Source: a virus (Duplodnaviria > Caudoviricetes). From it: a DNA stretch of 64,000 nucleotides. The translations under genes were made by a program, and so were the position numbers. The DNA is taken from the IMG/VR virus record IMGVR_UViG_3300032116_000009. One strand, given 5' to 3'. Positions 47,695-48,582 of the stretch are shown here, piece by piece; within the stretch, counting starts at the first letter, position 1, and each line of letters starts with the position of its first letter. The notes under the pieces are model-generated. The model saw only the letters and a list, made by a program, of their open reading frames with translations. It was not told the origin of the DNA and did no database searches.

Positions 47695-47720
47695 AAAAAA
47701 AGGAGGGGATCAACCCTCCT
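47695..47720 (-). terminator. Intrinsic terminator closing the riboswitch operon
   Basis: AGGAGGG/CCCTCCT stem, 6-nt loop, T6 on the minus strand. Confidence 0.8.
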
Positions 47721-47727
47721 CAATAAT

Positions 47728-47817
47728 TTACTTATAAATCCATTGAATATACAAGGATAACATTATCGTAGTTAAAGCAATTGCAGCAGTAGACGATATG
47801 ATGATTTGTGCCATCAT
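47728..47817 (-). CDS. 29-aa hydrophobic microprotein
   Basis: Read manually: MMAQIIISSTAAIALTTIMLSLYIQWIYK; ATGA overlap with upstream ORF. Confidence 0.55.
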   Translation of the reverse strand: MMAQIIISSTAAIALTTIMLSLYIQWIYK

Positions 47818-47912
47818 TTTGCCCCTACTAATTGTGCAAGTTGAGCTTGATAACGACGATCTTGTTTTTGTTTTTGTTCTTTAATGAGTTGTAGGAAGTT
47901 AAGTTTTTTCAC
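47814..47912 (-). CDS. 32-aa basic microprotein
   Basis: Read manually: GTG start, MKKLNFLQLIKEQKQKQDRRYQAQLAQLVGAK; GGAGG upstream. Confidence 0.6.
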   Translation of the reverse strand: MKKLNFLQLIKEQKQKQDRRYQAQLAQLVGAK

Positions 47913-48067
47913 TTCTGCACCTCCATGTTTTTGCATGGACGATACGCTACTCCACGATATGTATTTTGTGGATGAGCAGGAGCGTGTGTTTTGTTATACC
48001 AAGACACATACTCTTTCTTTGCATCTTCAGTGTCGTACTGACACCCTCTATAAACGACTTTAGACAT
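47909..48067 (-). CDS. DUF4278-like small protein
   Basis: Two YRG(C/V).Y motifs; AAGGAG RBS before ATG 48067. Confidence 0.75.
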   Translation of the reverse strand: MSKVVYRGCQYDTEDAKKEYVSWYNKTHAPAHPQNTYRGVAYRPCKNMEVQK

Positions 48068-48098
48068 TAGGGTTCTCCTTAATTTTGAGGCTAAAGAG

Positions 48099-48270
48099 CG
48101 TTCCTTCAGTCGGCTTTTGCGTCTATAAAGCAACCTTTTTTAGTTACTTGTTTAACCTCCCAAACTATATCATTTCTTTGTTGAGCGTCCAATTTTGGAT
48201 GGGTAATTACCCTCCCAATAATAAAATTGGCCTGAAGACAAGTTAAAAGGAATGCTTCCATAGATGAACG
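48099..48270 (-). ncRNA. Glutamine-riboswitch-like element 2, P2 loop contains an ORF
   Basis: CGTTC-A-TCTAT (48270-48260) ... ATAGA-CGCAAA-AG-CCGA-CT-GAAG-GAACG (48126-48099). Confidence 0.7.
48106..48261 (-). CDS. 51-aa protein nested in riboswitch element 2
   Basis: MEAFLLTCLQ...CFIDAKAD; ATG lies in the P2 5' strand and the stop TGA in the P3-J3/1 segment. Confidence 0.65.
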   Translation of the reverse strand: MEAFLLTCLQANFIIGRVITHPKLDAQQRNDIVWEVKQVTKKGCFIDAKAD

Positions 48271-48273
48271 ATC

Positions 48274-48519
48274 CGTTCCGAGTCGGCTTACTTCCGTCCT
48301 ATTCAGTTTTAGCACTTATTGACAACATCCTTTCGGAGTTCTAATAGCAATCGGTCTTCTACTCTTTGAATAACTACATCGTCGTTTTTAACGATGTCCA
48401 TTAGTTCCCACGCTGCGTCACAACTTATACTCACAGGAAATGACTTTGGTTGTGGCGTAGAAACAGAAAGAAGTGGAACCCATGCCAAAAGCAAAAGTGC
48501 CTTAGTCATAGGATGAACG
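48274..48519 (-). ncRNA. Glutamine-riboswitch-like element 1, P2 loop contains an ORF
   Basis: CGTTC-A-TCCTA (48519-48509) ... TAGGA-CGGAAGTA-AG-CCGA-CT-CG-GAACG (48301-48274). Confidence 0.7.
48309..48509 (-). CDS. 66-aa protein with hydrophobic N-terminus, nested in riboswitch element 1
   Basis: MTKALLLLAWVPLL...ISC..AWELM; ATG overlaps the P2 5' strand. Confidence 0.65.
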   Translation of the reverse strand: MTKALLLLAWVPLLSVSTPQPKSFPVSISCDAAWELMDIVKNDDVVIQRVEDRLLLELRKDVVNKC

Positions 48520-48529
48520 TTAGAGGATT

Positions 48530-48559
48530 ATTATACCTCTATTCATACTATCTATGCAA
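48530..48559 (-). promoter_or_regulatory. Sigma70-type promoter of the riboswitch operon
   Basis: TTGCAT (48559-48554), 18 nt, TATAAT (48535-48530); predicted start a few nt before element 1. Confidence 0.7.
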
Positions 48560-48566
48560 GTTATTT

Positions 48567-48582
48567 TGTATTATTTGTTACA
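48567..48582. promoter_or_regulatory. NtcA-type binding site
   Basis: TGTA-TTATTTGT-TACA matches GTA-N8-TAC with preferred flanks. Confidence 0.6.

Follow-up and report, generated by a model that had tools for sequence, protein, structure and literature searches.

A putative nested glutamine sensor with two small genes in its P2 loops in a cyanomyovirus

It is known that glutamine riboswitches act as ON switches for the translation of the IF17/DUF4278 gene (PMC6212724; Klahn 2018), that glutamine is bound in the groove of a CGUUC/GAACG helix, and that a glutamine-II aptamer can be put together from two separate RNA molecules (PMC6698751). Riboswitch aptamers are generally treated as compact, non-coding modules, and search tools and surveys assume as much; the survey of glutamine riboswitch doublets required that no open reading frames (ORFs) intervened (PMC9481103), so that a layout with genes inside the aptamer was excluded by design. 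Such a layout is described here in the IMG/VR record IMGVR_UViG_3300032116_000009, a stretch of 64,000 nucleotides (the window) from a T4-like cyanomyovirus (Kyanoviridae), whose top DNA matches (BLAST) are Synechococcus phages of lakes and reservoirs and which is also present in freshwater metagenomes. The element is 421 nt long and corresponds to 48519..48099 of the minus strand, on which all the features discussed below are located (Table 1). An earlier note on this DNA had described two consecutive glnA-type units whose P2 loops, of 207 nt (ORF1, unit 1) and 133 nt (ORF2, unit 2), each enclose a whole gene; both the anatomy and the loop lengths were borne out. With a probability of about 0.7, we interpret the element as one glutamine-sensing RNA domain opening a phage nitrogen operon, i.e., a nested double sensor with genes in its P2 loops.

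The layout is far beyond chance, because homologous ORFs are flanked by the same aptamer halves in hundreds of contigs, and the nesting is near-obligate. When isolates and IMG/VR are considered together, ORF2-type genes lie inside the aptamer in 77/77 unique loci and ORF1-type genes in 79/83 (38/42 freshwater, 41/41 marine-type). All 35 unique freshwater ORF2 loci are located within unit 2, including four in which a CGUUU variant goes together with a C-terminus extended by read-through; the marine loci are nested in 41/41, 34/34, 1/1, and 7/7 cases, counting a CGCAC variant that was missed by the search pattern and read by eye, and every unique marine relative in IMG/VR has an aptamer half on either side. 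Among the isolates, the layout is found in P-SSM2, P-SSM5, and S-SSM7 (a gene in unit 2), in P-SSM4, P-SSM3, and P-RSM3 (genes in both units, annotated as the hypothetical proteins T4-GC 429/430), and in DSL-LC02, DSL-LC03, and S-SRM01. The nested start codons are located 3-7 nt past CGUUCA, and the ORF2 stop codon usually falls in GAC-UGA-AGG, 3 nt 5' of the last P1 strand; the stop codon of ORF1 lies 7-10 nt before the P2a 3' strand, within that strand, or in the following junction. One of the four freshwater ORF1 loci that are not nested is cut by the contig end, and the other three (L119, L120, and L147; about 985-1260) are free-standing, with their own promoter and terminator and no DUF4278 gene. 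These three have lost the 3' half of the aptamer and their 5' half has decayed (CAGTTCA), a small experiment of nature which suggests that the 5' half is kept only while its 3' partner exists.

Some variations on this layout were also recorded. In one lineage (L053-L059; about 990-1180), the ORF2 homologues do not possess the aptamer UGA and continue for eight extra codons through the last P1 strand (DANxPKERxxNxP). In another locus (L075, 1001-1108), ORF2 carries an in-frame internal deletion leaving 35 aa, and both aptamer halves still flank it. A different glutamine-aptamer-like element, with CGUUU/AAACG strands, almost no P2, and then a second CGUUUA, is present in six TARA and other marine contigs (L277, L303, L307, L323, L328, L354).

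The earlier note had taken the looped-out frames for genuine genes, and coding-type conservation was indeed found for both of them. The ratio of nonsynonymous to synonymous substitution rates (dN/dS) is 0.28 for ORF1 and 0.19 for ORF2 (with a dS of about 1.2 for the latter), third codon positions are the most variable ones, the gaps and indels in the alignments occur in multiples of three, thus keeping the frame, and each of the two families possesses two invariant cysteines. On the basis of this pattern of conservation, ORF1 and ORF2 are real genes. Just as the note had read them, in both the start codon overlaps the 5' strand of P2 with no Shine-Dalgarno sequence upstream, and ORF2 traverses the 3' half of the aptamer (IDAKAD) and stops inside it; IDAKAD is encoded by its last six codons, and its TGA stop lies within GAC-TGA-AGG. 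ORF1 has 257 related loci in IMG/VR and is matched by 253 protein clusters, and ORF2 has 69 related loci. Pfam contains no family for either ORF and PHROGs nothing for ORF1; ORF2 matches the unnamed PHROGs family phrog_504. The AlphaFold2 model of ORF2 is a two-helix hairpin with a predicted local distance difference test score (pLDDT) of 86, for which fold searches retrieved generic helical hairpins and no informative match, and the model of ORF1 is poor (pLDDT 59). A paralogy of the two ORFs was considered and discarded, the profile-profile probability being 0.5% with narrow sets and 7.7% between marine ORF1 and ORF2; their common Cys-(36 to 39)-Cys spacing is at most a hint in that direction.

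Two conserved hairpins were predicted by RNAalifold within ORF1. In the one comprising the start codon, 98.4% of the cells are paired, one pair is compensated, and the synonymous sites are nearly frozen; in the internal one, pairing reaches 100% and a C-G pair is replaced by U-A in four sequences. A third conserved hairpin (48328-48337) exhibits frozen synonymous sites like the other two. One of the conserved hairpins of ORF1 reads UCC-GAAA-GGA, the same as the P2 hairpin of unit 1 in S-CREM1, and the gene also holds mutually pairing copies of GUUCC and GGAAC that resemble P1 strands. Conserved hairpins and frozen synonymous sites in the interior of ORF1 are what might be expected if the inserts were structured RNA expansions of P2, with frames that are incidental and untranslated, and the facts that the element folds better than its shuffles (z = -2.8 and -3.3) and that no Shine-Dalgarno sequence precedes the ORFs point in the same direction. 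This explanation is scarcely tenable, however, in view of the dN/dS values of 0.19-0.28 with third-position bias, the frame-preserving gaps, the invariant cysteines, the confident model of ORF2, and the survival of free-standing ORF1 copies that possess a terminator of their own.

The P2 helix comprises 5-6 bp in the window, and that of unit 2 is extendable to about 11 bp with one bulge. As in the glutamine-I family, it follows straight after CGUUC-A and shows covariation; the size of its loops is far outside the range of the family. Covariation was assessed on 203 unique ORF-bearing units, 120 of the unit-2 type and 83 of the unit-1 type. In the former, each of the positions 3-6 of P2b exhibits three to five standard pair types, i.e., UA 49, CG 42, and UG 28 at position 3; AU 41, CG 24, UA 24, and UG 19 at position 4; UA 60 and AU 34 at position 5; and UA 31, AU 26, GC 23, and GU 13 at position 6. 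The proportion of paired P2b cells is 85.6%; shuffling the partners among the sequences lowers it to 69.2 +/- 1.4% (at most 73.3% in any of 500 shuffles), and sliding the strands against each other to 44-58%. In the unit-1-type units, compensatory changes occur at positions 4 and 6. Examples of paired strands are UCUAUGGA/UUCAUAGA, UCUCAUGG/UUAUGGGA, UCCUUAUG/UGUAAGGA, and UCCAAAUG/UGUUUGGA. In the close freshwater sets, P2 is 95-100% paired versus 24-59% after sliding. Cognate P2 strands pair at 5.2 and 5.5 of 6 positions versus 3.9 and 4.0 for cross-unit combinations. Since the helix has been kept by compensatory changes across the 203 units, the stems do close around whole genes, as the note had proposed, and the covariation shows that the long-range P2 is under selection.

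Further traces of this helix can be seen in the coding sequence. The residues preceding the DAKAD tail (FI, LW, CK, SW) co-vary with the strand that carries the start codon, and the third-position entropy amounts to 1.24 bits in the interior of ORF2 versus 0.21 in the six codons overlapping the aptamer. P2 attains 9-18 bp in many unit-2 sequences, where the codons just ahead of the aptamer are complementary to the opening five or six codons of the gene. The predicted probability of P2 is 0.85 with the native interior of unit 2 versus 0.28 with shuffled interiors (37/37 units), and 0.52 versus 0.29 in unit 1. Outside the genes, the invariant AUAGGA strand adjoins an upstream spacer that varies freely.

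These data also bear on the possibility that the element is a relic, i.e., that gene inserts into permissive loops disabled the sensing and that the halves persist as initiation regions, coding sequence, or recombination sites. The native sequence fails in Rfam, copies of ORF1 that lack the sensor do occur (L119, L120, and L147), and related RNA-library contigs contain a short hairpin instead of ORF2, which makes the loop a hot spot of insertion and deletion. Nevertheless, a relic appears very improbable, because the core letters and the P2 pairing have both been retained, with compensation, in marine as well as freshwater clades and at dS values exceeding 1; no variation is seen in the non-coding 3' strand of P2a, the synonymous sites are frozen over the overlap with the aptamer, the residues before DAKAD change in ways that keep the stem, and the 5' half decays where the 3' half has been lost.

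Concerning the nature of the cores, the native window does not reach the RF01739 gathering threshold (35 bits), and the search of the native sequence with RF01739 and RF01704 by which the note had suggested checking its claim gave no glutamine match from Rfam even at E = 10, as is to be expected of a model that cannot span the inserts. The same core letters are located at the homologous place in S-CREM1, S-PM2, P-SSM2, and DSL-LC03, where P2 is a short hairpin, and these relatives score 33.3-35.1 bits against RF01739. Unit 1 of the window is identical at every non-P2 position to the match of DSL-LC03 (34.2 bits), and unit 2 is identical to the unit-2 match of S-PM2 (33.3 bits); in S-CREM1, a glnA riboswitch was annotated by the authors at the homologous place (PMC9964418). 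Moreover, both strands of the glutamine-I P1 consensus, CGUU(C/G) and (G/C)AACG, are present twice, and the sensor is placed in the leader of a DUF4278/IF17-like gene, as is the case for glutamine-I. The identity of the cores as glnA-type glutamine aptamer cores, asserted in the note, is thus supported through relatives with identical cores, and on this basis they would be expected to bind glutamine. The glutamine-II model (RF01704) gives only 24.6-26.4 bits with the relatives (cut-off 33), with several non-pairs, and neither a match to this model nor the pseudoknot hairpin with GGAACG in its loop was found in the window.

Both cores consist of CGUUC, A, P2, CG(G/C)AA..., and a GAACG partner strand, but they are not equivalent. 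The note had reported CGGAAGTA but not GAAG in unit 1 and the reverse in unit 2, and this is correct: in RNA letters, unit 1 possesses CGGAAGUA with a mere C in place of GAAG, and unit 2 possesses CGCAAA and GAAG. Therefore, instead of CGGAAGUA and GAAG in each aptamer, the pair as a whole holds one full set. This split of the loop-E signature is common to all the short-hairpin phage doublets and is not confined to the ORF-bearing ones.

The way in which the four P1 strands (a5 and a3 in unit 1, b5 and b3 in unit 2) pair with each other is the point on which the note had to be revised: it had parsed the element into two self-contained tandem aptamers, mentioning a composite fold as a mere alternative, and both the P1 variants and the minimum free energy (MFE) folds speak for the latter. 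In a comparison anchored on the AAGUA junction alone, a3 and b5 are standard in all loci except one lineage (L053-L059), in which a3 is AAACG and b5 is CGUUU. A pattern search of IMG/VR for P1 variants retrieved nothing; a metagenome scan for b5 variants yielded mostly chance matches, together with six loci that are genuine doublets upstream of DUF4278 genes. The latter represent three distinct sequences (L271/L273/L306), with a3 CAACG and b5 CGUUG, and with a5 CGUUC and b3 GAACG standard. Among the 139 unique doublets, the P1 strands are invariant in 133 and the exceptions are compensated crosswise; the informative lineages are these two, plus one doubtful parse (L006). Tandem pairing would involve the mismatches C.C plus G.G in one lineage and C.A plus U.G in the other, whereas crosswise pairing, of a5 with b3 and of b5 with a3, is perfect in both. 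The linker measures 3-5 nt in all the doublets, which is the size of a hairpin loop. The MFE fold of the 421 nt is nested (helix 1-5 with 417-421, P2a, and an inner GAACG-GAU-CGUUC hairpin), with a z-score of -3.3 and 0/100 shuffles folding as well, and the doublet of S-CREM1, with short hairpins in both units, has a nested MFE fold likewise. Crosswise nesting would also explain why each pair holds exactly one CGGAAGUA and one GAAG. It is therefore probable, on the thin support of two lineages and of predicted folds, that the four P1 strands pair crosswise and form one nested double sensor.

The main competitor consists of two independent tandem aptamers, with P1 helices 48519-48515/48278-48274 and 48270-48266/48103-48099, each looping out its own gene and acting in a pseudo-cooperative manner. 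In the RF01739 alignments of the short-hairpin relatives, each unit is paired in this way, the isolated units fold with their own P1 and P2 closed, the identity of the four P1 strands of the window makes the pairing possible, and 157 glutamine doublets have been classified as tandem riboswitches in the literature (PMC9481103). On the other hand, P1 would be mismatched in both variable lineages, where crosswise pairing is perfect, each unit would be left without one half of the loop-E signature, and the whole element folds nested. Hence, the tandem arrangement is unlikely, even though it deserves attention, and the nested one is moderately favored over it. A third possibility places just one compact, circularly permuted aptamer between the genes (about 48302..48258), formed by the 3' half of unit 1, the GAU loop, and the 5' half of unit 2, the outer halves being orphans. 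Although a central stretch of 47 nt is the best conserved one across phages (BLAST), and AUAGG and UCUAU can form pairs if the register is shifted by one nucleotide, the cross-unit P2 averages 4.0 of 6 pairs versus 5.2-5.5 for the cognate one, and two to three of those pairs are common to all units; furthermore, the presumed orphan halves are conserved as well as the center, and the scheme is inapplicable to loci with a single nested gene. We regard it as the least credible of the explanations considered.

If the nested double sensor is accepted, a mechanism can be envisaged, in which glutamine binding, the sign of the regulation, and the coupling to translation are what we infer. Since the start codons lie in P2, aptamer folding and translation of the ORFs must exclude each other, a point already made in the note. 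A ribosome initiating or terminating on either of the nested genes would unwind P2 and the adjacent glutamine-binding helix. The glutamine-bound, folded sensor would in turn bury both nested start codons and, as can be supposed from the gifB switch, would expose through the last P1 strand the Shine-Dalgarno sequence that precedes the DUF4278 gene; in this way, glutamine would favor translation of the IF17-like gene at the expense of the nested genes on the same mRNA. In its most extended form, this proposal sees in the element a translation-coupled toggle with reciprocal outputs, where the RNA is locked in the presence of glutamine, with the nested start codons hidden and the IF17-like gene open, and ribosomes keep the sensor unfolded in its absence; the "tandem" cyanophage switches of the literature would then be one interlocked two-site sensor whose P2 arms routinely carry genes, and it would represent the first case in nature of a riboswitch that carries genes in its aptamer and yields reciprocal outputs from one binding event. 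We advance this extended form tentatively and consider its chances somewhat below even.

Several observations weigh against the nested glutamine sensor and must be set beside the evidence in its favor. The conserved hairpin at the start of ORF1 (48511-48480) shares nucleotides with P2a, competes with it, and is not accounted for by the scheme, nor are the two other conserved hairpins of the gene. The two halves are synthesized 3-5 s apart, during which ribosomes could load on the exposed start codons, so that the sensor may act only on untranslated molecules. The nested assignment of the P1 strands derives from two lineages, and the inner hairpin could be the ligand-free conformer of a tandem pair. 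As for P2, the covariation counts ignore phylogeny, although the distinct compensated haplotypes are many; in the close freshwater set taken alone, the P1 and P2 core is invariant and hence provides no covariation; and RNAalifold, applied to an alignment of ORF2 units made of close relatives and thus uninformative, closed P1 (-2.5 kcal/mol) without recovering P2. Lastly, there is no glutamine match of the native window in Rfam, either at the gathering threshold or at E = 10, and the relatives match RF01739 at or just below the gathering score.

The operon opened by the sensor comprises, in this order, the promoter, the sensor, the DUF4278/IF17-like gene, two micro-ORFs, and a terminator (Table 1). 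The product of the downstream gene matches DUF4278 (PF14105) with 21.8 bits, below the cut-off of 25.3. The motif of its expression platform, CUCUUUA facing the Shine-Dalgarno sequence, is also present in S-CREM1, DSL-LC03, and S-SRM01. Transcription is likely to start at about 48523-48520, just 5' of the sensor. At this promoter, a consensus scan returned only a weaker, overlapping match; a promoter-like match within ORF2 (48191-48164) was dropped, as the alignment shows no conservation there. The spacing between the candidate NtcA-type box and the -10 box exceeds the canonical activating position by about one helical turn, and GTA-N8-TAC boxes are also located directly before the sensor in L271/L276 and P-SSM4. 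A -10 box in the loop of an inverted repeat was also seen, by eye, in seven related contigs (L004, L003, L119, L002, L157, L161, and L162). The arms of the repeat vary among phages and stay complementary (AGGAT/ATCCT, GGTCTA/TAGACC, TAGGAG/CTCCTA, TGTGTTA/TAACACA), and the repeat may serve as an operator or form a hairpin, either in DNA or in RNA. The micro-ORFs (47814-47936), located ahead of the terminator, overlap the DUF4278 gene at its end.

Contigs from RNA libraries bridge unit 1 and ORF1 (48234-48523) and unit 2 and ORF2 (48097-48292), with the reservation that strand, level, and true ends are not readable from them and that DNA carry-over is possible. Two studies yielded contigs with ends at 48523 and 48533, near the predicted start, which is a weak hint in its favor. 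In contigs of related phages, 48123 is joined to 48263 via 8-9 other letters, i.e., a unit 2 with a short hairpin and without the gene; gene-bearing and short-hairpin forms of unit 2 thus both circulate.

Table 1. Coordinates of the sensor, the nested genes, and the remaining parts of the operon in the window (RNA features are predicted).
Feature	Position	Strand	Description
Unit 1	48519..48274	-	CGTTC (48519-48515), A, TCCTAT (48513-48508), 205-nt interior, ATAGGA (48302-48297), CGGAAGTA, AGCCGACT, C, GGAACG (ends 48274)
Linker GAT	48273-48271	-	between units 1 and 2
Unit 2	48270..48099	-	CGTTC, A, TCTAT (48264-48260), interior, ATAGA (48126-48122), CGCAAA, AGCCGACT, GAAG, GAACG (48103-48099)
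P1 strand a5 CGUUC	48515..48519	-	invariant in 38/38; 5' strand of the outer helix (nested) or of unit-1 P1 (tandem)
Outer helix, nested model	48519-48515 with 48103-48099	-	first and last five nt of the element
Inner hairpin, nested model	48266..48278	-	GAACG, loop GAU (48273-48271), CGUUC; from a3/b5 compensation and MFE fold
P2a 5' strand UCCUAU	48508..48513	-	includes A and U of the ORF1 ATG (48509-48507); 100% paired with 48302-48297
P2a 3' strand AUAGGA	48297..48302	-	non-coding, begins 7 nt past the ORF1 stop; invariant
P2b 5' strand UCUAU	48260..48264	-	overlaps the ORF2 ATG (48261-48259); extendable through codons 2-5
Core A 3' half	48274..48296	-	CGGAAGUA, AGCCGACU, C, P1 strand a3 GGAACG (48279-48274); matches DSL-LC03
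Core B 3' half	48099..48126	-	P2b 3' strand AUAGA (48126-48122), CGCAAA, AGCCGACU, GAAG, P1 strand b3 GAACG (48103-48099)
ORF1, 66 aa	48309..48509	-	in the P2a loop; hydrophobic N-terminus, invariant Cys30 and Cys66
ORF2, 51 aa	48106..48261	-	in the P2b loop; two-helix hairpin (model), invariant Cys8 and Cys44
ORF1 start hairpin	48480..48511	-	start-codon region pairs with codons 7-10; RNAalifold
ORF1 internal hairpin, 8 bp	48376..48397	-	ACAUCGUU / GACGAUGU; RNAalifold
Candidate NtcA-type box TGTA-N8-TACA	48567..48582	-	upstream of the operon promoter, immediately past the preceding gene's stop codon; read from sequence
Likely promoter	48521..48540	-	perfect TATAAT (48535-48530) inside inverted repeat AGAGG...CCTCT; read from sequence
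Expression platform	48075..48098	-	CUCUUUA (48098-48092) complementary to Shine-Dalgarno UAAGGAG (48081-48075) of the DUF4278 gene
DUF4278/IF17-like gene, 52 aa	47909..48067	-	PF14105 profile match, phrog_5049 match, YRG repeats
Intrinsic terminator	47700..47721	-	predicted; closes the operon

A search of the literature on cyanophage glutamine riboswitches, doublets, and structures revealed no description of genes inside the aptamer. The case is of interest in that a presumed ligand-binding fold has been kept by selection even though 130-420 nt separate its strands and translation takes place in the RNA that is looped out. If the proposed reading is true, this would be a natural case of direct competition between the ribosome and aptamer folding, in which nested and downstream genes respond in opposite directions; the common cyanophage doublet would be redefined as one nested sensor; and two widespread, unstudied families of small proteins (T4-GC 429/430, phrog_504) would be part of the way in which cyanophages read host nitrogen. 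The element also shows that members of known RNA families are systematically missed when they carry long inserts.

The closest known relative is glutamine-I (RF01739, e.g., the leader of Synechocystis gifB, PMC6212724), with which the element has in common the CGUUC/GAACG helix, the unpaired A, P2, the CGGAAGUA and GAAG strands, and the place upstream of a DUF4278/IF17-like gene with the Shine-Dalgarno sequence close behind. It differs in that the P2 loops are protein-coding and 133 and 207 nt long, versus roughly 3-20 nt in the phage relatives, the P2 stem takes in the start codons, only AGCCGACU remains of P3, each of the two cores possesses one half of loop E, and the Rfam model is blind to the native sequence. 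The tandem glutamine doublets (157 counted, PMC9481103) likewise possess two cores, a linker of 3-5 nt, and one output gene, and short-hairpin versions of exactly this element are found in S-PM2 and S-CREM1; the difference is that the evidence gathered here favors crosswise P1 helices, i.e., one nested structure, over independent switches. Glutamine-II (Downstream-peptide motif, RF01704, PMC6698751) resembles core B in the CGCA-type junction after P2, places the glutamine pocket in a CGUUC/GAACG helix, and builds this helix from distant segments, its aptamer having been assembled from two RNAs. The pseudoknot hairpin with GGAACG in its loop has no counterpart in the element described here, whose distant segments are separated by whole genes. 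Looping a protein gene out of an RNA helix is tolerated in group I and group II introns, which carry ORFs in their peripheral loops and in which translation and folding interfere with each other; these introns are self-splicing mobile elements, and their ORFs encode their own homing or maturase proteins. The element of the window would instead be a metabolite sensor, and its nested genes have no known link to the function of the RNA. Finally, there are riboswitches and attenuators with upstream ORFs in the expression platform, of which a mycobacterial B12 switch is reportedly an example; in these, the state of the leader RNA and the translation of a short ORF are linked, the ORF lying downstream of an intact aptamer; in the cyanophage element, by contrast, the ORFs are located inside the aptamer itself.

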